A DNA stretch of 35,877 bases from a virus (Duplodnaviria > Heunggongvirae > Uroviricota > Caudoviricetes), in IMG/VR virus record IMGVR_UViG_3300029888_000103. The stretch is one strand, 5' to 3'. Within the stretch, counting starts at the first letter, position 1. Each line of letters starts with the position of its first letter. The translations under genes and the position numbers were made by a program. Positions 7,822 to 29,697 of the stretch are shown one piece after another. A model generated the notes under the pieces. That model did not search any database. It saw only the letters and a list, made by a program, of their open reading frames with translations, and had not been told where the DNA came from.

Positions 7822-8250
7822 CGTTGGCCCCGCTTCTCTGAATCGCTTTATACCGCCATTCCAGCACTTCGGTCAGCGGCATAACGTCAGTAACGGATGG
7901 CGGCCAGTGAAAGATGGTGGCGATATCAGCCACCAGATCGTCAACCGTCAGGCTGTCGGTAAACCGGCAAGCACCGACTTCTTCAACAAAAAAGTGACAA
8001 CCTCAACCGACATGGCAGTGAGATCTGCCGGGTCCATCTCTGCAATTTCCTGTGCAGTCAGTGCCGGACTGGAAATGCGGGGGATCACGGTCATCATCGC
8101 GTTAACATCCATATCCATAATGGCCTGCAGGCGTGTACCGCGCAGCGCACCGGACTGCGGTTTACGCAGCACAATTTCGGTAATTTCTGTTTTACCGCGC
8201 ATGATGGGGGTATCCAGTTGAATGGTCTTTTCAGTCTGCTTATCGCTCAT
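7814..8250 (-). CDS. E+E': gpE+E' fusion made by programmed -1 ribosomal frameshift
   Basis: Slippery site T TTT TTG (minus strand, + coordinates 7987-7993) in X XXY YYZ register with the E frame; the -1 frame stays open for about 57 codons (VEEVGACRFTDSLTVDDL...) and ends at a TGA overlapping the gpT ATG, giving about 145 aa, as for P2 E+E'. Confidence 0.65.
7948..8250 (-). CDS. E: tail assembly chaperone gpE
   Basis: 100-aa ORF between FII and T; contains the slippery heptamer T-TTT-TTG near its 3' end. Confidence 0.8.
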   Translation of the reverse strand: MSDKQTEKTIQLDTPIMRGKTEITEIVLRKPQSGALRGTRLQAIMDMDVNAMMTVIPRISSPALTAQEIAEMDPADLTAMSVEVVTFLLKKSVLAGLPTA

Positions 8251-10144: not shown

Positions 10145-10717
10145 TCAGGGGAATTCATTGCTCTTATTTGCCGGAAATTTTCTATAAATTGTGGAAACAC
10201 CTACATCAAAAATCAGTGCAATACGCTGTCTTGATTCTCCGGCCTCGAGTAAACGTCCAATCTGTGCCCACTGTTCGGTGGTCAACTTAGGACGGCGTCC
10301 ACCTACTCTGCCTTTGGCGCGAGCTGCAGCCAGCCCCGCCCTGGTACGTTCAACTATCAGTTCGCGCTCCATTTCAGCCAGGGCCCCCATGACATGAAAA
10401 AAGAAACGGCCCATTGGGGTACTGGTATCAATACTGTCAGTCAGGCTTCGGAAATTCACGCCACGCTGGCGCAGCTCTTCTATCAGCGTAACGAGATGCC
10501 GCATACTGCGCCCCAACCTGTCCAGCTTCCAGACAACCAGAGTGTCACCTGCCGATAGTGTCCTGAGTAGTTTTTTCAGCCCCGGTCTGTCGGACTTAGT
10601 GCCACTGATTTTGTCCTCAAAAATCCGCTCACATCCCGCGCAGTTCAGTGCATTACGTTGCAAATCGGTGTTCTGGTCATTTGTTGACACGCGTACATAG
10701 CCAATAAGCATGATCAT
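10145..10717 (-). CDS. serine DNA invertase (Hin/Gin/Pin family)
   Basis: N-terminal catalytic motif IGYVRVSTNDQ with the resolvase-family serine, and a C-terminal HTH (GVSTIYRKF); 190 aa; lies directly beside an invertible tail-fibre segment. Confidence 0.9.
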   Translation of the reverse strand: MIMLIGYVRVSTNDQNTDLQRNALNCAGCERIFEDKISGTKSDRPGLKKLLRTLSAGDTLVVWKLDRLGRSMRHLVTLIEELRQRGVNFRSLTDSIDTSTPMGRFFFHVMGALAEMERELIVERTRAGLAAARAKGRVGGRRPKLTTEQWAQIGRLLEAGESRQRIALIFDVGVSTIYRKFPANKSNEFP

Positions 10718-10738
10718 CCCCCTGAATAAAAACCGGAG

Positions 10739-11260
10739 ATGATGCCAGTTAGCTGTTACCTCTGCATTTTCTTAAACGTTGGTTTGGGAGAAGGCTCTGC
10801 ATTACCTGTTGGTGTGCCTGTTCCATGGCCTTCAGCCACACCGCCAACAGGCTGGCTGAAATGCAACGGTGCGGCTTTTTCTGCTGAAGAATACCCGGAA
10901 CTGGCAAAGGCTTATCCGACAAATAAATTGCCTGATTTACGTGGTGAGTTTATTCGTGGCTGGGATGACGGGCGCGGTATTGATGCAGGACGTGTTTTAT
11001 TGAGCATTCAGACAGGGATGCTGGAAAAACACCGCCATATTGTTGTTGCCAATGATGGTTACGACACAAAAGATGAATGGGAACTGGCTACGATTTTCAA
11101 AAAGACATACACACAAGGACGGGGACTTGATGCCACAAATACAGGAGGGAGTCTGATCCCATCACCGACACTTCATTCACGAGGGAGTATCGGTAATACT
11201 GGCGGGAGTGAAACCCGTCCACGAAATATTGCATTTAACTATATCGTGAGGGCTGCATAA
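10739..11260 (+). CDS. silent alternative tail-fibre C-terminal exon (joins H only after inversion)
   Basis: ORF continues through the crossover site; encodes LGLGEGSALPVG... and a tail-collar-like segment (AAFSAEEYPELAKAYPTNKLPDLRGEFIRGWDDGRGID). The GLGE junction matches the gpH sequence at the other crossover site. The part upstream of the crossover site (about 10795) is not expected to be translated. Confidence 0.6.
   Translation: MMPVSCYLCIFLNVGLGEGSALPVGVPVPWPSATPPTGWLKCNGAAFSAEEYPELAKAYPTNKLPDLRGEFIRGWDDGRGIDAGRVLLSIQTGMLEKHRHIVVANDGYDTKDEWELATIFKKTYTQGRGLDATNTGGSLIPSPTLHSRGSIGNTGGSETRPRNIAFNYIVRAA
10767..10794. repeat. invertase crossover site (left), pix/gix-like
   Basis: ttttcttaaacgttggtttgggagaagg; its reverse complement shares the core TTCTCCCAAACCAA with the site at 12607-12636. 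Confidence 0.7.
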
Positions 11261-11862
11261 TGGATAACGCCGTATTAAATAGCGAGCTTATTGCCACGAA
11301 GGCGGGGAATATTACCGTCTATAACTATGATGATAAAACTCGGGAATATATTTCTACTTCAAATGAATATCTTGCCATTGGTGTCGGTATCCCAGCATAT
11401 TCCTGTCTGGATGAACCTGGTATACATAAGGCGGGTTATGCTATCTGCCGTTCGATGGATTTAAACTCATGGGAATATGTGCCAGACCATCGCGGTGAAA
11501 TCGTCTATAACACCGAAACGGGAGACGCCAAAGAAATCACAGCTCCGGGTGATTATCCTGAAAATACAACCACTATCGCCCCGTTAACGCCATTCGATAA
11601 ATGGGATGGTAAGAAATGGGTGACCGATACTGAGGCACAGCATAGCGCCGCAGTAGACGCGGCAGAAGTACAGCGTCAGTCACTGATTAATACTGCAATG
11701 GCTTCCATCAGTCTGATTCAACTTAAATTGCAGGCCGGGCGGCAGCTGATGCAGGCAGAGACCACCCGACTTAACACTGTGCTGGATTACATTGACGCGG
11801 TGACGGCAACAGATACCAGCACAGCGCCGGATGTCATCTGGCCTGAACTGCCGGAGGCGTAG
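11260..11862 (+). CDS. alternative tail-fibre assembly chaperone (for the silent fibre tip)
   Basis: 200-aa ORF directly coupled to the alternative fibre exon; its C-terminal region is similar to the active-orientation gpG (…PELPEA versus …PTPPAV endings). Confidence 0.65.
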   Translation: MDNAVLNSELIATKAGNITVYNYDDKTREYISTSNEYLAIGVGIPAYSCLDEPGIHKAGYAICRSMDLNSWEYVPDHRGEIVYNTETGDAKEITAPGDYPENTTTIAPLTPFDKWDGKKWVTDTEAQHSAAVDAAEVQRQSLINTAMASISLIQLKLQAGRQLMQAETTRLNTVLDYIDAVTATDTSTAPDVIWPELPEA

Positions 11863-12271
11863 GCCATTCAATATCTGGCCCACTGGAGGTATCAACCAGC
11901 TCCAGTGCGTCCAGGTAATCCAGCCACAAATTATATTGCGCCAGTTCCTCGTCTTTCAGACGACCAATAGCGGCTTTACCGGGCCATTGTTTACTGTTCA
12001 TGTATTCGTTGGCCAGATTAAGCAATAATTGCCTTTCTGATTCTGCCTGTTGAATAAGTTCTTCATGTGATGGTGGAGGTATTAGTGCCCATGTGGGTAA
12101 TCCATTTTCTCCTGCAACACGAATTTTGCCATCTGGGGGCGTATTTATTGCAAATTCATTATAAACATCATCACTGACAGCCAGAGCATCATCTGGCCAT
12201 GAATTTGCATTAATGTAATCATCCTTAAGTGCAGGATTCACAAAAATGTTTAAAGATGGACTATAAAACAT
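11834..12271 (-). CDS. G: tail-fibre assembly protein gpG (active orientation)
   Basis: 145-aa ORF immediately downstream of H inside the invertible segment. Confidence 0.8.
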   Translation of the reverse strand: MFYSPSLNIFVNPALKDDYINANSWPDDALAVSDDVYNEFAINTPPDGKIRVAGENGLPTWALIPPPSHEELIQQAESERQLLLNLANEYMNSKQWPGKAAIGRLKDEELAQYNLWLDYLDALELVDTSSGPDIEWPTPPAVQAR

Positions 12272-22112: not shown

Positions 22113-23879
22113 ATGAACACCACACTGACACCCGCAGATCTCGATCCCCGTCGGCAGGCCATGCTGCTCTACTTTCAGGGATACCGCGTAGCCCGCATTG
22201 CTGAAATGCTGGGCGAGAAAGTTGCAACCGTTCACAGCTGGAAAAAACGCGACAAGTGGGGTGACTATGGGCCGCTGGATCAGATGCAGCTCACCACCAC
22301 CGCACGCTACTGCCAGCTCATTATGAAGGAGCACAAAGAAGGGAAAGATTTCAAAGAGATTGACCTGCTGGCGCGCCAGTCGGAACGCCACGCGCGGATC
22401 GGCAAGTTTAACAATGGCGGCAACGAAGCCGACTTAAACCCTAACGTCGCCAACCGCAACAAAGGCCCACGCCGTCAGCCGGAAAAGAACGTTTTCACCG
22501 ATGAACAGATTGAGAAGCTGGAAGAAATCTTCCATTCCTCCATGTTCAACTACCAGCGCCACTGGTGGGAAGCTGGAAAAACCAACCGCATCCGCAACCT
22601 GCTGAAGTCACGCCAGATCGGCGCGACCTTTTACTTTGCCCGTGAAGCCCTGATTGACGCCCTGCTTACCGGACGTAACCAGATTTTCCTTTCCGCCAGT
22701 AAGGCACAGGCTCACGTCTTTAAGCAGTACATCATCGACTTCGCTAAAGAAGTGGAGGTGGAGCTGAAAGGCGATCCGATGGTGCTTCCTAACGGGGCCA
22801 CGCTTTACTTCCTCGGCACCAATGCCCGCACGGCCCAGAGTTATCACGGCAACCTGTATCTGGATGAATATTTCTGGATACCGAAATTCCAGGAGCTGCG
22901 CAAAGTGGCTTCCGGTATGGCTATTCACAAAAAATGGCGACAAACCTATTTTTCCACGCCATCCAGCCTGACACACAGTGCTTATCCGTTCTGGTCCGGT
23001 GCGCTGTTCAACCGTGGGCGCAACAAAGCCGATAAGGTGGACATCGACCTGTCCCACAGCAATCTGGCCCCCGGCCTGCTGTGCGCAGACGGGCAATACC
23101 GCCAGATAGTCACCGTGGAAGATGCGGTGCGCGGCGGCTGTAACCTGTTCGACCTTGACCAGTTGCGCATGGAATACAGCCCGGACGAATACCAGAACCT
23201 GCTGATGTGTGAGTTCGTGGACGATCTCGCGTCCGTGTTCCCGCTCAGCGAGCTGCAGGCGTGTATGGTGGACAGCTGGGAAGTCTGGACCGACTTTCAT
23301 GCACTGGCCCTGCGCCCGTTTGGCTGGCGCGAAGTGTGGATCGGTTATGACCCGGCAAAAGGTACGCAGAACGGCGACAGCGCCGGATGCGTGGTGGTGG
23401 CACCGCCAGCCGTGCCGGGCGGTAAGTTCCGCATTCTTGAGCGTCATCAGTGGCGCGGAATGGACTTCCGCGCCCAGGCTGACGCCATCAAAAAACTGAC
23501 CGAACAGTATAACGTGACCTATATCGGCATCGACTCGACCGGCGTCGGTCACGGGGTTTACGAGAACGTGAAAGCGTTTTTTCCTGCCGTCAGGGAGTTT
23601 GTCTACAACCCCAACGTTAAAAACGCCCTGGTACTCAAGGCCTACGACATTATCAGCCACCGCCGTCTGGAGTTTGACGCCGGGCACACCGACATTGCGC
23701 AGTCATTTATGGCAATCCGTCGCGCCACCACCGCCAGCGGCAACCGCCCGACCTATGAAGCCAGTCGCAGCGAAGAAGCCAGCCACGCCGATCTGGCCTG
23801 GGCAACGATGCACGCATTGTTTAACGAACCGCTGCAGGGCGAATCCGCCAATACCAGCAATATTGTGGAGATTTTTTGA
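22113..23879 (+). CDS. P: terminase large (ATPase) subunit gpP
   Basis: 588 aa; divergent from O; position and length fit P2 gpP. Confidence 0.9.
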   Translation: MNTTLTPADLDPRRQAMLLYFQGYRVARIAEMLGEKVATVHSWKKRDKWGDYGPLDQMQLTTTARYCQLIMKEHKEGKDFKEIDLLARQSERHARIGKFNNGGNEADLNPNVANRNKGPRRQPEKNVFTDEQIEKLEEIFHSSMFNYQRHWWEAGKTNRIRNLLKSRQIGATFYFAREALIDALLTGRNQIFLSASKAQAHVFKQYIIDFAKEVEVELKGDPMVLPNGATLYFLGTNARTAQSYHGNLYLDEYFWIPKFQELRKVASGMAIHKKWRQTYFSTPSSLTHSAYPFWSGALFNRGRNKADKVDIDLSHSNLAPGLLCADGQYRQIVTVEDAVRGGCNLFDLDQLRMEYSPDEYQNLLMCEFVDDLASVFPLSELQACMVDSWEVWTDFHALALRPFGWREVWIGYDPAKGTQNGDSAGCVVVAPPAVPGGKFRILERHQWRGMDFRAQADAIKKLTEQYNVTYIGIDSTGVGHGVYENVKAFFPAVREFVYNPNVKNALVLKAYDIISHRRLEFDAGHTDIAQSFMAIRRATTASGNRPTYEASRSEEASHADLAWATMHALFNEPLQGESANTSNIVEIF

Positions 23880-24904
23880 TGGGAAAGAGTAAGAAGAACC
23901 GCGCTGCGTCACAGAACCAGACCCAGCATAAAAGCCAGACTTCAGCCGAAGCATTCAGCTTTGGCGATCCCATTCCTGTACTGGACCGCCGCGAACTGCT
24001 GGACTATGTGGAATGCGTACAGACGGATCGCTGGTATGAGCCCCCCGTAAGTTTTGACGGACTGGCGCGAACATTCCGCGCTGCCGTACACCACAGCTCA
24101 CCGATCGCAGTGAAATGCAACATTCTGACCAGCACCTACATCCCTCACCCGCTGCTCAGCCAGCAGGCTTTTTCGCGTTTTGTGCAGGACTATCTGGTTT
24201 TTGGTAACGCCTACCTGGAGAAACGCACGAACCGCTTCGGTGAAGTTATCGCCCTTGAGCCTACACTGGCAAAATACACCCGACGCGGGTTAGACCTGGA
24301 TACCTACTGGTTTGTGCAATACGGTATGACAACCCAGCCGTATCAGTTCACGAAAGGCAGCATTTTTCATCTGATGGAACCGGACATTAACCAGGAGATC
24401 TACGGCCTGCCCGGTTATCTTTCTGCCATTCCGTCAGCTCTGCTCAACGAGTCCGCCACGCTGTTCCGCCGCAAGTATTACATTAACGGCAGTCATGCAG
24501 GCTTCATCATGTACATGACCGATGCTGCGCAGAACCAGGAGGACGTGAACAACCTTCGCAATGCGATGAAAAGTGCCAAAGGACCAGGTAACTTCCGCAA
24601 TCTGTTCATGTACTCGCCTAACGGCAAAAAGGACGGGCTTCAGATCATCCCGTTGTCAGAAGTCGCGGCGAAGGATGAGTTTCTGAATATCAAAAATGTC
24701 AGCCGCGATGACATGATGGCTGCGCACCGTGTACCGCCACAAATGATGGGAATCATGCCGAGTAATGTTGGGGGATTTGGTGATGTTGAAAAAGCCAGCC
24801 GCGTCTTTGTCCGCAACGAACTGATGCCGTTACAGAAGCGACTGCAGGAGCTTAACGACTGGCTGGGCGAAGAAATAATTCGCTTCGAACCTTATATGTA
24901 TTAG
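23876..24904 (+). CDS. Q: portal protein gpQ
   Basis: 342 aa; start overlaps the P stop (ATGA); last structural gene before cos. Confidence 0.9.
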   Translation: MMGKSKKNRAASQNQTQHKSQTSAEAFSFGDPIPVLDRRELLDYVECVQTDRWYEPPVSFDGLARTFRAAVHHSSPIAVKCNILTSTYIPHPLLSQQAFSRFVQDYLVFGNAYLEKRTNRFGEVIALEPTLAKYTRRGLDLDTYWFVQYGMTTQPYQFTKGSIFHLMEPDINQEIYGLPGYLSAIPSALLNESATLFRRKYYINGSHAGFIMYMTDAAQNQEDVNNLRNAMKSAKGPGNFRNLFMYSPNGKKDGLQIIPLSEVAAKDEFLNIKNVSRDDMMAAHRVPPQMMGIMPSNVGGFGDVEKASRVFVRNELMPLQKRLQELNDWLGEEIIRFEPYMY

Positions 24905-24921: not shown

Positions 24922-24955
24922 AAAGCGCCTGCTACTGCAGGCGCTTTGTTTACTC
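24922..24955 (+). terminator. intrinsic terminator after Q
   Basis: 11-bp perfect stem AAAGCGCCTGC-tact-GCAGGCGCTTT followed by a T-rich stretch; overlaps the stop of the convergent 97-aa ORF. Confidence 0.65.
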
Positions 24956-25243
24956 TTTAACAAGTGTGCCCCATACCGAGTCTTCAACCTCTTCAACAAC
25001 AATATTGATGTTGCAAATAACATGGTCTTCACTTACTCGAGTATATCTGAATAACCTTGATTTCACTTTCCCACCAAACGACTCACGGTCTTTATTGTTG
25101 GTAATGTCGACATAATCCCCAACATTCGGAAGCATCAGGAGTGGATTGTCTTCCGAAGAACATCTTACAATCTCTCCATCATCAAGAGGTCGCGTATCCC
25201 CTTTACGTAAGTATTGAAAGTCATAGTTGTATATGGTTTTCAT
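24950..25243 (-). CDS. hypothetical 97-aa protein (cargo between cos and Q)
   Basis: ATG with an AGGA Shine-Dalgarno sequence; AT-rich ORF with no recognisable motif; convergent with Q. Confidence 0.5.
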   Translation of the reverse strand: MKTIYNYDFQYLRKGDTRPLDDGEIVRCSSEDNPLLMLPNVGDYVDITNNKDRESFGGKVKSRLFRYTRVSEDHVICNINIVVEEVEDSVWGTLVKE

Positions 25244-25419
25244 TGTCTATCCTTTTGAAATTAACATCGCTGACGTATGTTGTTTCACAGTTCCATTTCC
25301 ACATTAAGTCAATGAAATCAACATCATTTAATGTGTGCCAATATAGTGCAACACGATCCCGAAAACTTCAAATCAATCTCTCCAATACGCGGGATTATTA
25401 CTTTTTCGCCCCGTTACGC

Positions 25420-25445
25420 GCGCTCGTATCCCCGCCACGCCTGCC
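25420..25445 (-). other. probable cohesive-end (cos) site
   Basis: Minus strand reads GGCGTGGCGGGGATACGAG; its first 13 nt match my recollection of the 186/P2 19-nt cohesive end (GGCGTGGCGGGGAAAGCAT / GGCGAGGCGGGGAAAGCAC); lies in the 370-bp non-coding gap on the Q side of the accessory locus, the expected place. Confidence 0.5.
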
Positions 25446-25613
25446 CGCTTTATGTAGTGGTTTTCATGCGCCTGCATGACATAAGCAAAGGCCCGCCATT
25501 CCTAGCGGGCCTCAGCTAAAACGATCCTCAAACGATCATGCGGATTCATGCGGCATAGTCATGCACTTGTGTGGTTACGAAGGAATATAGTTGCGAAAAT
25601 CGATTAAAATGCC

Positions 25614-26486
25614 TTAAGCTCTCTTAATCAACCCCTTATGCGTTGCTTTGGTAAGATAAGCTAATTCTTTAGGCCCCTTATCTCTAAAGCCCACCCATTC
25701 TGGTTGGAATTTTATAAAACTTGGAATTGCGGTTGCCAAGGCTGTAACCATACCGGGAATAATACCGCCTGAATCACCAGCAATAGCAGCATGGTACAAC
25801 GGTTTTAAAAATTCCATAACCTGCCCACCATCTACTTCTGGATTAACTTTGACTCCCATTCTGATAGGATTTCTCCATTTCCCTTCGATAGCTTTATCAA
25901 GATTAACTACAGCCTCTTGTAATAAAGAAAAATTTTTAGCCCTCGTTAGATTAGGGTCTCTAGAATAAAGGACTTCAGTATACAGTTTTTCTAAGTACTC
26001 ATGTAACGCATTAAGATCATCCTGACAATCATCTTTAAAACGTAATATATCTTCTATATGAGCATCTTTATCAGGAATTCTCAGAACATTAAACAACTCC
26101 AATCTCAACTGAAGGGCCGTTTTCTGTTCTTTATCATATATTAAATTCTCCCCTGTTTGATGAAAGTGCCAATAAGTAGCAGGCTCGTTCTTCCTGAATT
26201 CATCCAATGTCTGCAACTGAAATTCCGTATATAAAAATGGAAAGTCTTGGATATTCAGCATACCATCATGTTTCATAATAGGTCTACGTAATACCCCATT
26301 ATCTAATAATTCTTTTTCTTTAGGCACAATCGAGTGAATATTTTCACTATCTAGAATAACCACATCATCCCAGTAAAAGCAGAAATAATTAATATCCTGC
26401 TCAGTTAAACCTGCCCCAAGATAGACCGTACTATTATTTCTATGAAAACTCATTTCATTAGGATTAGCTACAATGCCACGTTTCAT
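25614..26486 (-). CDS. uncharacterised 290-aa protein in the old/tin-equivalent accessory slot
   Basis: ATG at 26486 with a strong AAGGAG Shine-Dalgarno sequence (the ORF-track start at 26510 is a GTG); AT-rich; hydrophobic C-terminal segment (DSGGIIPGMVTALATAIPSFI); no motif I can assign. Confidence 0.6.
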   Translation of the reverse strand: MKRGIVANPNEMSFHRNNSTVYLGAGLTEQDINYFCFYWDDVVILDSENIHSIVPKEKELLDNGVLRRPIMKHDGMLNIQDFPFLYTEFQLQTLDEFRKNEPATYWHFHQTGENLIYDKEQKTALQLRLELFNVLRIPDKDAHIEDILRFKDDCQDDLNALHEYLEKLYTEVLYSRDPNLTRAKNFSLLQEAVVNLDKAIEGKWRNPIRMGVKVNPEVDGGQVMEFLKPLYHAAIAGDSGGIIPGMVTALATAIPSFIKFQPEWVGFRDKGPKELAYLTKATHKGLIKRA

Positions 26487-26697
26487 TCTTGCTCCTTGAT
26501 AAGCATACACATTTTAAGAATGACATATATTCTAATAATTTCAATACATTATGAGTTATAACTAAAAGTGCAGCATAGGTCTCGCCCTGATAGATAATCA
26601 AGTGATTACTGTCTTTTTACTTATGGTTAACGCCTCTCAAGGCTCGCGGTTCAACCTTGCTGACGCCAGAAGCAGGTTCAGACGCCAGCAACGTTTC

Positions 26698-26931
26698 TTA
26701 ATGCAACCAGCTGTCGTCTTCCCACACCTTCTGCATAATTTTCATCACTTGTTTTCTTTCTTCGTCCAGTTGCAATCCGGTAAGTTCCACACCGTTAGAG
26801 CTACCTTTGCGGATACGAATTACCGTTTTGGGATACAGGGGGCGCAGATTGCGGTAAAGCTCGGATTCAAGGGCGTCCAGTGTAGACTGGCTAATCTTCT
26901 GCTCTTTATCGATCATTATTTCAATGCGCAT
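26698..26931 (-). CDS. DinI-family protein (Tum C-terminal-like)
   Basis: 77 aa from MRIEIMIDKEQKISQSTLDALESELYRNLRPLYPKTVIRIRKGSSNGVELTG...WEDDSWLH, which parallels E. coli DinI (MRIEVTIAK...); GAGGTG Shine-Dalgarno sequence before the ATG at 26931. Confidence 0.75.
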   Translation of the reverse strand: MRIEIMIDKEQKISQSTLDALESELYRNLRPLYPKTVIRIRKGSSNGVELTGLQLDEERKQVMKIMQKVWEDDSWLH

Positions 26932-26941
26932 AAAAGTCACC

Positions 26942-27130
26942 TCAGCTGATGACATCCATTGAGCGGTTGTATTCGTGGGTTCTGATTTTTGCCATGAGTT
27001 CATCTGTCAGTTCAGAAACCCACTGCAGAGCCAGCCCCTTCTCTTCATCACTACACTCACTAGCCGCTACAAGCTTAAGAAAAAAATCAATGCGCTGGAG
27101 CTTCAAAGACTCCAAAAAATAGTCCTGCAT
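26942..27130 (-). CDS. small ORF (62 aa), possible N-terminal part of a Tum-like antirepressor
   Basis: ATG at 27130 preceded by AGGAGGAAAG; a LexA box lies 40-60 bp upstream; its 3' end overlaps the DinI-like frame. Confidence 0.5.
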   Translation of the reverse strand: MQDYFLESLKLQRIDFFLKLVAASECSDEEKGLALQWVSELTDELMAKIRTHEYNRSMDVIS

Positions 27131-27170: not shown

Positions 27171-27190
27171 CACTGTTTATATTTACAGTA
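27171..27190. promoter_or_regulatory. LexA operator (SOS box)
   Basis: cACTGTttatatttACAGTA = CTGT-N8-ACAG with an AT-rich spacer, matching the TACTGT(AT)4ACAGTA consensus; an additional half-site-like TACTGTATAC lies at about 27155-27168. Confidence 0.7.
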
Positions 27191-27282: not shown

Positions 27283-29697
27283 TTAATACAGGTTTCGCCA
27301 CTTATCATCTTCCTGCAAACGCTGGTTCCGATAGAAGATACGCAGGCCTGCTCCTGACGGAATACTGCCGCCGCGAAGGAGTAAATCGACCTCTTTCTCG
27401 CTGCCATCAAATCCCCTGGACTTCAGTTCATACACGAGCTGCAGTCGCTGATGGTCTGTAATTCGCTGTTTGTAGTCTTTACGCCGTTTCGGTTTCACCA
27501 GGCGTAACCTTGCTGCCAGTTCCCGGCGCTCTTTTTTGCTCATACTGTGCAGGTAATCGTGCAACTCCTTGTCATCCATGCGGGTGATATCCGTTCTGGT
27601 ATCTCCATCAGCTGATTTGTCTTTCCCTTGTTGGTACAAATTTTCAGCAAGGGGACAGTTATTGCCACGAGTCCAAGGGGCGCAAGCGCCCTGGTCGGCT
27701 GCCGCCTCCTGAACGTCAACGGCCTTACGAACCATTTTCCACTTCACTGCATGAGTGCAGATCTTGCCCTCTGCAATGGGTGACCAGATGCCATAAATAC
27801 GAATACCGTGATCGCCATAGGCGGTTGGCTCTTCGTTGATTTCATAAGCGGTTCTGATGAGGTGATATTTGCGGGGAACCAGTACGCCGCCCTGCTTCAT
27901 GATGTAGGTGGCAAAACAACCAGCATCAGCAGCAGCCAGAATGGCATCAAGACGCGGGTTATCCAGTACCGGCGCACCTGCTTTTTTGTCACCCTGTTGC
28001 CTTGCCGCCTGACCAGCCAGCAAGCGAAGTTCACGGTAAGCCTGACGTCCCGGAATACCAAAGAAGCGGAATTGCTGAACACGATGCAGAGACGCCCAGG
28101 CATTAACGTATTCAGCGTTATCACGCAGGGATTTACCCGTTTCCTTGCTGATCTCGCCAGCCAGACCACGCCCGTCAATGTTCTTACTGATGTATTTCGC
28201 GATGTAGCTTGTCGGCGTTCCTTTGCGCGGGTTTATCAGCTCAGATTTAAAGCGTGGACCAGTGTTATTACCCAGTTCCTCGCGGTCTTCACGGATGGCA
28301 AACTTACGCAACAATGCAGTAATGGCGCGGCGGTCTTTTTTGCGCATGAAACACAACAGGTGCCAGTGAACTGTACCGTCATGATGCGGCTCAGCCACCC
28401 GCACGCCATACCAGCGCAACCCGGCTTTGTGCATCGCCTTACGAAATGCAGCAAACATGCCGACCAGATAATCGCTGCTTTGTCTTACCGTCGCATTTGT
28501 CCAGGTTGGGTTTGGTCTGCCGTTATTGAGCGTGGAATGGAAACGTGACGGACAGGTAATGGTGTAGAAAACGGCGCAGTCACCGCGCATTTCCGCGATA
28601 AGCTCCAGACCTTTAACACAGGCCATCATCTCATTGCGGCGGTGCGCCGGGTTGCTGCTGCTGGCGTTTACCACGTCTTCCATATCCAGCGTGTCGCCCT
28701 CTTCGTTCACCAGTTCATGAGAACGGAAAAACTCCAGTGACTTGCGGCGCTGCTCACGTTTATGCATCACGGCTTCATAGCTGACATAGGGAGATGCTTT
28801 TTTGCTGACCAGGCAGACAGCACGCAACTGCTCTTCCCGCCATTCGCAACGCATTTTCCATAATTTCCGGTACCACCAGTCGGCGCACAACATACGCGCC
28901 AGCGAACCCGGAATGAGTTCATAGGGCACGGGTTTACGGCGGTTTCTTTTCCGACGGAGTTGCTCAAACGCAGGCGGGATGACATCCAGACGCAGGGTTT
29001 CCGCTGCCACCTTTTCCCATGTCTTGCGGATTTCTTCTGGCTTAACGTCATCGGTGGCATACAAATCACCACAAGCTGCATCAAGGCACATGCTCATATG
29101 CGCAGCGACAAGGGTAGACAGGCGTTTCACCTGATCCTGACTCATTTCAGGCAGAATCAGCAGGCCGTCCAGCCCTACATGGCTTGCCATAAAACGAAAA
29201 GATGCAGATAGCTGGCTGTCGCGTACATGCTCCAGTCGTTCCAGACATGGCTTAATCGTCTCACGTAAATAGCGGGAATAAGCCTTTGGCCTGCCCAGGC
29301 TGCTGAAGTATTCAATACGTTGCATCAGCGGCTTGCTGATATGGGAGGGCTGGGCGCTGACGTCTGCCAGAATGACCATGTCCGGGTTAAAACGCTGCTG
29401 CTCATGCGCCAACTTTGCCCGGCTAATGAGCTTATCCTGCTCTATTTCGCGTTGGACAGGATCACGGGATTCATTAAAGAAATAACGCTCCCAGACCTGA
29501 TCACTCAGTGCCTCGCGGCGCAGTTGTTCCTGCTCGTTATCGGCAGCGTACAGAGTGATCAGGTTTGAAAGCGCAGAAACCGGCGCAACTTCCGCCGGGT
29601 CCAGATAAGGGTTAATGGCCTTTTTCGGGCTGTTCCATGAGAACGATGCGGCAGCCTCGTTAAAGCCGCAGCAGTTGCTCATATCGGCATGGCTCAT
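27283..29697 (-). CDS. A: replication initiation protein gpA (rolling-circle initiator family)
   Basis: 804-aa ORF in the gpA position of the early operon; start overlaps the stop of the upstream methylase gene. Confidence 0.88.

Follow-up and report, generated by a model that had tools for sequence, protein, structure and literature searches.

In P2-type phages the interval from replication gene A through cos to the portal gene Q is a site of exchangeable cargo, and the locus described here raises the question of what is encoded by the one AT-rich gene lying between gpA and cos, and whether it serves the lysogen, the phage or neither. The gpA-cos-gpQ interval was set out as a P2 defence hotspot by Rousset et al. 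2022 (PMC9122126; also PMC13586616), with 1,650 arrangements and with three of eight newly cloned systems found to be defensive alongside old-tin (PMC9122126; PMC13586616). The slot is occupied mostly by defence systems (PMC13586616, PMC9122126); the majority of the systems cloned by Rousset et al. gave no phenotype against their phage panel (PMC9122126), and not all cargo of the P2 hotspot is defensive.

A swappable cassette next to cos

The stretch of DNA analysed (the window; 35,877 nucleotides, IMG/VR record IMGVR_UViG_3300029888_000103) is a P2/186-like Escherichia coli prophage with the host genes ybjM and ybjL at 288-2620. Tail and capsid genes are followed by terminase P, portal Q, a 97-aa ORF and the cos core, and then, to the right of cos, by the gene under study (here the DUF6236 gene, after its Pfam family), a DinI-like gene, a 62-aa ORF and gpA; beyond gpA lie a Dam methylase gene, early genes, CI, a PD-Lambda-1-like gene and the integrase (Table 1). 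The core GGCGTGGCGGGGA, which we take to be cos from the cohesive ends of P2 and 186 and from cosR in the P2 record, was found as well ~180 bp past the homologous DUF6236 gene at two other loci.

Table 1. Features of the hotspot and its surroundings, in window coordinates
Feature	Position	Strand	Basis or remark
Terminase P	22113-23879	+	
Portal Q	23876-24904	+	
97-aa AT-rich ORF, portal-cos half of the hotspot	24950..25243	-	phrog_12676, E = 8e-49, function unknown
cos core GGCGTGGCGGGGA, 186-type cohesive-end sequence	25429..25441	-	Sole exact match within the window
Terminator-like GC-rich hairpin (GGCCCGC...GCGGGCC), then UUUGCUU	25480..25516	-	RNA fold and sequence
Swappable cargo cassette, 1,061 bp, 35% GC	25567..26627	-	BLASTN with E. 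coli prophages lacking the gene
DUF6236-family CDS, sole cassette gene, 290 aa	25614..26486	-	ORF and translation; Pfam PF19749; phrog_23128
Cassette-specific AT-rich leader with AAGGAG ribosome-binding site	26487..26627	-	Travels with the DUF6236 gene
Conserved flank 3' of the DinI-like gene, 11-bp hairpin without U-tract	26628..26697	-	RNA fold
DinI-like gene, conserved upstream neighbour	26698..26931	-	Pfam DinI, E = 1e-22; 77-aa DinI-like protein in E. coli prophages
62-aa ORF, conserved, first of the orf62-dinI unit	26942..27130	-	phrog_698, E = 4e-38
Perfect LexA-box consensus CTGTTTATATTTACAG upstream of orf62-dinI	27173..27188	+	Sequence scan
Replication gene A (gpA)	27283-29697	-	

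The ATG of the DUF6236 gene stands 5 nt from its Shine-Dalgarno sequence, AAGGAG. In the program-made ORF list the frame opens instead at a GTG further 5' (26510; 298 aa). Since the N-terminus is M-(K/E)-R-G in all DUF6236 homologues, the ATG is the start. Judged by the Pfam match given below and by 1,004 family representatives, the coding status of the ORF is far beyond chance. The gene has a GC content of 36.2%, compared to 51.3% for the whole window, and the 211-bp interval on its 5' side (26487-26697) has 39% overall and 30.5% within the 141 cassette-specific bases (26487-26627). The coordinates, protein length, Shine-Dalgarno sequence, AT-richness and 211-bp gap reported in the first-pass annotation, which had been made from the letters of the window, were all confirmed.

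The boundaries of the cassette are set by comparison with prophages that lack the gene, where BLASTN homology ends at 25564-25566 and restarts at 26628, so that the exchanged segment consists of the DUF6236 gene with 141 bp upstream and 47 bp downstream. One such prophage has an empty slot, its two flanks joined with ~8 bp between them and a SEFIR gene across cos, and in another the slot is filled by an HNH endonuclease gene. The flank adjoining the DinI-like gene is kept regardless of the cargo; scoring of its hairpin for intrinsic terminators gave no terminator call. The hairpin on the opposite side lies ~100 nt past the DUF6236 stop codon, just ahead of cos, in the conserved cos flank common to P2-like prophages, and could end transcription of the gene.

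The gene's own promoter is likely carried by the leader. The first-pass annotation had proposed an AT-rich upstream region that could carry its own promoter, of which the AT-richness stands but a convincing sigma-70 promoter does not: two weak promoter-like pairs are present (TTGATT-18-TATGCT at 26601-26572 and TTATTA-16-TAAAAT at 26538-26511; each 8 of 12 positions), and a stricter promoter scan of the upstream region found no sigma-70 promoter. Further upstream, the LexA box CTGTTTATATTTACAG is the only zero-mismatch CTGT-N8-ACAG in the window, and a putative SOS-controlled promoter there, ahead of the 62-aa ORF (hypothetical protein WP_001154434 in sibling prophages), could possibly read into the cassette. 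Among the features by which morons are recognised, the cassette has a composition unlike its flanks and is followed by a terminator-like hairpin, and a promoter is weakly indicated.

Of 5,426 complete E. coli genomes, 22 have the DUF6236 gene, always on the chromosome and always with at least 99.2% identity, compared to ~1,260 that match the surrounding P2 region. On these counts a status as core gene was rejected, and the gene is accessory, as the first-pass annotation had supposed, in a slot that is empty or HNH-filled in sibling prophages. The synteny of these siblings also bears out its description of the gpA-cos interval as a variable locus, in keeping with the hotspot literature (PMC9122126, PMC13586616).

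In all DUF6236-bearing E. coli genomes homology to the window ends at cos (25405-25417). The 97-aa ORF across cos occurs elsewhere with other partners, and the DUF6236-bearing E. coli prophages have an AIPR gene or nothing in its place. Given the homology break at cos and these varied partners, the two halves of the hotspot reassort at cos; the pairing seen in the window, of the DUF6236 gene with the 97-aa ORF, is absent from every complete genome of the collection. A two-gene system formed with the cargo across cos was rejected since the partner varies (AIPR, the 97-aa ORF or nothing), and the 97-aa ORF is independent cargo.

Family membership, prior record and predicted architecture

The 290-aa protein matches Pfam DUF6236 (PF19749; E = 1e-20, 74.6 bits against a gathering cut-off of 26.2), with residues 35-281 aligned to profile positions 75-319 of 324, and all 118 aligned relatives match the same family. 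Its PHROG match, phrog_23128, is of unknown function, and E. coli proteins 100% identical to it are named 'DUF6236 family protein'. In Table S5B of Rousset et al. 2022 'DUF6236' is system #125 of the P2 hotspot with 23 occurrences, represented by a protein that differs at two residues; Table S5A has it both alone and with an AIPR gene, no transmembrane entry is given for it, and the sequence is absent from the table of evaluated systems. A text search of a paper library for DUF6236 or PF19749 returned no paper whose text mentions the family.

No known defence or catalytic domain was found by Pfam (E ≤ 1, 118 members), by NCBIfam, which gave no match to the DUF6236 protein, or by PDB profiles searched with alignments of close and of diverse relatives. 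Against PADLOC-DB v2 the window protein had no match with E ≤ 1, and four diverse relatives had none with E ≤ 0.01. Matches to SAMHD1 and 14-3-3 covered short helical segments at E > 0.08 and were dismissed. Two statements of the first-pass annotation have thus to be withdrawn: that the protein has no assignable motif, since DUF6236 fits, and that it is novel, since Pfam and the hotspot literature already list the gene and the object itself is not new. Its wording of a 'defence or exclusion' gene was too strong, the location having been its ground, with no PADLOC model, mention in paper texts or entry in the table of tested systems to add to it.

The distinction from old and tin did hold up. 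BLASTP gave E > 4 against P2 Old, with no match to AAA_15, AAA_21 or Toprim in Pfam, and E = 3.9 against Tin, with an hhalign profile probability of 0.1%, and both identities were rejected. The DUF6236 gene and old-tin share the same interval (A to the right cohesive end) and are alike non-essential, AT-rich hotspot cargo. They differ in that DUF6236 is one gene, transcribed towards cos on the strand of A, whereas old-tin are two, transcribed away from cos from a mapped promoter of their own. Rst_DUF4238, an anti-T7 gene validated from the P2 hotspot (Rousset 2022), is likewise a single gene named by its DUF, but has a defence phenotype on record where DUF6236 has none; its family, PF14022, was matched by none of the 118 DUF6236 members at E ≤ 1, so the two are not the same. 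The same prophage has a PD-Lambda-1 homologue (PADLOC, E = 4e-120; 37% GC; DUF4041 and T5orf172), also AT-rich single-gene cargo, in another hotspot, that between cI and int. It is unrelated to DUF6236 and, unlike it, is covered by a PADLOC model and has a phenotype in the literature. The presence of this homologue elsewhere in the prophage was counted in support of a defence reading.

AlphaFold2 models were obtained for the window protein (pLDDT 71, pTM 0.71) and for a Klebsiella lambdoid homologue (pLDDT 79, pTM 0.80), and both give the same order of elements: an N-terminal mixed α/β domain (~1-140), a three-helix bundle (~144-203) and a C-terminal part with β-strands, short helices and a Gly/Ala-rich hydrophobic stretch before a basic tail. 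Residues near-invariant across the family are G4 (with R3), Y38-W39-D40, R68, W106, P136/P138, F150-K151, Y169, D177 and Y277; the polar and aromatic ones among the invariant positions are concentrated in the α/β domain and in the three-helix bundle, a pattern that suggests a ligand pocket or active site. Profile and structure searches had been named as a way to check the first-pass reading, and it was the sequence profile that gave an assignment; structure libraries gave no significant match for the models.

The α/β domain resembles the CARF/SLOG effector fusions (Csm6, Can2, Cad1 and Cam1), but with scores that lie below significance and equal those for glycosyltransferases and nucleotidyltransferases. 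Unlike the CARF systems, DUF6236 has no sequence match and no cyclase or CRISPR partner, and its domain order is opposite to that of Cam1; on this basis the protein was not placed among the CARF-domain sensors.

The hydrophobic C-terminal segment pointed out in the first-pass annotation is present at residues ~240-258, with a Kyte-Doolittle 19-residue mean of 1.55, which is marginal for a transmembrane helix, and its position is conserved across the family, for which the median of the 19-residue maximum is 1.45-1.52 and 24% of representatives reach 1.6. The segment was of low confidence in the first model and formed β-strands in the second, which is the better one, and the basic tail that follows is of the cytoplasmic type. 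No signal peptide or clear membrane-spanning helix was found in the protein, and SLATT-like matches in 7 of the 118 members were very weak (E ~0.1). A classical transmembrane anchor, rejected as the default because hydropathy is below threshold in 76% of representatives and the better model has β-strands, is unlikely; the segment may instead be re-entrant or amphipathic, or serve in oligomerisation.

Recurrence near the packaging site of temperate phages

An exhaustive profile search recovered 1,004 representatives (50% clustering) at E ≤ 1e-3 and 445 at E ≤ 1e-10, nearly all of them stand-alone proteins of 280-300 aa; the only domain fusion found, which adds a SEC-C zinc motif at the N-terminus of a few distant members, offered no functional clue. 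Another P2-like prophage has a 60%-identical homologue in the same DinI-to-cos slot. In Hafnia alvei an intact 69%-identical copy lies at the same ybjL locus in a decayed P2 remnant, which keeps the gene together with a cos-like core, an AAA_15/AAA_21 ATPase, a portal fragment and an ogr/delta gene, and in which no further recognised phage gene was found. The Hafnia remnant adjoins a fimbrial operon. Related Klebsiella and E. coli phage records have the flanks and lack the DUF6236 gene.

Beyond the P2-like phages, a ~30%-identical clade was unexpectedly met in lambdoid prophages. In all eight that were looked up (Klebsiella, Enterobacter, Citrobacter, Serratia, Leclercia, Providencia and a metagenome) the gene stands directly after the holin-endolysin-spanin genes and before HNH/terminase, on the late-gene strand, irrespective of the type of lysis or packaging module. 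IMG/VR contains 57 viral contigs with relatives, of which four are P2-type. Among the other 53, with neighbours called from a small reference set that left 10 loci without a call, a lysis gene was the nearest recognised upstream neighbour at 32 and a packaging gene lay downstream at 26, in both cases on the same strand, and only one locus had another order. A Vibrio HP1-like phage has its DUF6236 gene at the genome end, adjoining an HNH gene. All 12 homologous genes examined for composition have 34-41% GC, each below its own flanks (mostly 49-54%).

The DUF6236 family thus recurs in temperate phages as cargo of a single gene, placed at the right genome end near the packaging site; what is new here is that ~30%-identity relatives fill the equivalent packaging-site-proximal slot of lambdoid prophages. 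No conserved neighbour or partner gene was found across the loci examined, and DUF6236 is therefore a single-gene unit. A literature search for a defence hotspot between the lysis and terminase genes of lambdoid phages returned nothing directly relevant. Morons are known from the right end of lambdoid genomes, such as bor of lambda, downstream of Rz, and the DUF6236 relatives are similar in lying between lysis and packaging genes, in being AT-rich and in having an intergenic leader of their own, but are unrelated in sequence to any characterised moron product.

Candidate functions of the DUF6236 protein

Because of what is known of the P2 hotspot, an anti-phage or exclusion role is the most likely single function, and the reading that we tentatively favour is of a moron cassette whose product would be expressed from the prophage and would act alone, as an anti-phage or superinfection-exclusion factor. 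The location, the cassette, its rarity and AT-richness, the lack of a partner, the recurrent slot and the retention in a dead prophage fit a moron that benefits the lysogen; that the gene is expressed in the lysogen, that it acts against phages and how it would do so at each biochemical step are what we infer.

In this reading, transcription in the lysogen would start within the AT-rich leader of the gene, perhaps with an SOS-dependent contribution of read-through from orf62-dinI and its LexA box, and sensor and effector would be combined in one cytoplasmic protein. The N-terminal α/β domain, with a pocket of the family-invariant residues R3-G4, Y38-W39-D40, R68 and W106, would act on a phage product or on a small and probably nucleotide-like ligand, by binding or processing it. 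The response would fall to the helical bundle (F150-K151, Y169 and D177) and to the Gly-rich hydrophobic C-terminal part, which by oligomerisation or membrane association would abort the infection. A more specific form of this reading is somewhat more doubtful. DUF6236 may represent a new family of single-protein anti-phage immunity, without close structural relative, at the packaging-proximal right end of temperate phages (P2-like and lambdoid; Enterobacterales and Vibrio), in which an α/β pocket would sense infection and a Gly-rich hydrophobic C-terminal module would kill or arrest the cell.

The lambdoid copies invite a different view, in which the protein aids the phage in lytic growth or infection. 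They are on the late strand and adjacent to the lysis genes, and late lytic expression in lambdoid prophages is possible because the gene shares the orientation of the late operon; with the LexA box and the weak CARF-like matches, this would suit a counter-defence protein (acting, say, on an immune signalling nucleotide, by binding or degradation through a CARF/SLOG-like α/β domain) or a late accessory of lysis or release. We hold such a role to be unlikely. The structural similarities are below significance and common to many Rossmann-like folds, late expression would come too late to serve counter-defence, and adjacency to lysis genes is limited to the lambdoid phages and does not extend to P2. 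Few sibling phages have the gene, so growth does not depend on it, and anti-defence genes were in just 28 of 1,511 P2 elements (PMC13586616). Its retention in the decayed, non-functional Hafnia prophage argues for a benefit to the host over a role in the lytic cycle.

Such a benefit need not involve phage conflict, and the moron features and the retention in a remnant beside a fimbrial operon could be expected of a lysogenic-conversion or host-fitness gene in a bor-like position, such as an envelope or metabolism enzyme with a nucleotide- or nucleotide-sugar-binding α/β domain. Conversion genes are classically found in the packaging-site-proximal slot of lambdoid phages, and the weak top fold matches include GT-B and GT-A glycosyltransferases and nucleotidyltransferases. 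This possibility appears slimmer again than that of a service to the phage: no glycosyltransferase or other enzyme family was recognised by sequence in the 118 members, a DxD motif is absent from the family since only D40 is invariant, the protein has neither signal peptide nor clear membrane-spanning helix, and the P2 slot is filled mostly by defence systems.

It is highly improbable that the gene is a selfish or addictive passenger (toxin-like or homing-associated) persisting by recombination at cos without benefit to phage or host, as might be read from the homology breakpoint exactly at cos with freely reassorting half-slots, from HNH endonuclease genes as frequent neighbours or alternative occupants, and from the near-identity of all 22 E. 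coli copies, a sign of recent spread, given that the family is old and diverse with conservation over its full length and invariant residues, that no antitoxin-like partner is conserved at the loci examined, and that HNH beside terminase in HK97-like phages is packaging machinery and not a homing element.

Whichever function applies, the DUF6236 cassette with its native leader is a cheap and well-delimited candidate for cloning, and the family-wide slot preference makes DUF6236 a well-defined one to test. If the protein does not defend, the locus serves as a caution that a gene's place in a hotspot does not amount to a function. If it does, it would add a single-gene system of unassigned fold to the prophage immunity of E. 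coli, Klebsiella, Enterobacter, Citrobacter and their relatives, and would link the P2 cos hotspot and the lambdoid lysis-packaging junction as equivalent cargo sites, the latter of which could likewise be mined for defence genes.

The cos core as a breakpoint

Homology between the window and the DUF6236-bearing prophages ends exactly at the cos core (window 25405-25441), which implies that the two half-slots on either side, portal (Q) to cos and cos to the replication gene A, reassort independently. On these alignments, cos would be a recombination anchor common to both half-slots. The portal-cos half is occupied by a 97-aa ORF that had no match in Pfam, NCBIfam or PADLOC. Its 90%-identity cluster contains variants that each recur on hundreds of contigs from assemblies labelled E. 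coli or other Enterobacteriaceae. Among 5,426 complete E. coli genomes, none paired this ORF with the DUF6236 gene.

Features of the prophage around the DUF6236 gene
Feature	Window position	Strand	Remarks
Hin/Cin-type serine invertase	10145-10717	-	with the neighbouring tail genes spans 10145-12271, inside the tail-fibre region
97-aa ORF	24950-25243	-	AT-rich, 39.5% GC; phrog_12676; portal-cos half of the hotspot
Perfect LexA box, CTGTTTATATTTACAG	27173-27188		just upstream of the conserved orf62 and DinI-like pair
PD-Lambda-1-like gene, 558 aa	33065-34741	+	37% GC; CI repressor on one side, integrase on the other

A defence gene and putative SOS and host-range loci of the same prophage

The prophage carrying DUF6236 has a second P2 hotspot, which holds a recognised defence gene; its 558-aa product matches PADLOC PD-Lambda-1 (E=4e-120) as well as Pfam DUF4041 and T5orf172/MUG113. 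The perfect LexA box suggests that orf62 and the DinI-like gene form an SOS-induced unit resembling the tum region of phage 186, and transcription from it may extend into the cargo slot. Within the tail-fibre region, the serine invertase adjoins a tail-collar fragment and two tail-fibre assembly genes in opposite orientations, an arrangement that looks like a candidate invertible host-range switch.

DUF6236 in a Hafnia remnant and in lambdoid prophages

Two Hafnia alvei loci (L008 and L009, 7001-9836) hold a decayed P2 remnant at ybjL-ybjM-grxA, the locus of the window's prophage. What survives is the hotspot alone: DUF6236, an AAA_15/AAA_21 ATPase of 561 aa and, at 8053-8065, a cos-like core. 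L009 has also kept an ogr/delta gene and a fragment of the portal gene. The hotspot remnant looks like domesticated cargo. In a few distant members of the family (proteins P0184 and P0289), the DUF6236 domain is fused at its N-terminal side to a SEC-C zinc-binding motif.

In lambdoid prophages (loci L004-L007, L012, L014, L018, L020, L021 and, from IMG/VR, L026-L078), DUF6236 nearly always follows the lysis cassette directly and precedes HNH/terminase, a position that holds across differing endolysin, holin and terminase types. In a Providencia prophage (L012, 6409-6633), the gene directly upstream of DUF6236 shows a faint Pfam match to Acb2/Tad1-hairpin, an anti-CBASS/anti-Thoeris sponge. In an Enterobacter hormaechei prophage (L004, 8958-10987), two more genes (485 and 196 aa), neither with a Pfam match, lie between DUF6236 and HNH/terminase and may be extra cargo of the same junction. 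This lysis-HNH/terminase junction may itself be a cargo hotspot, the lambdoid counterpart of the P2 cos hotspot.
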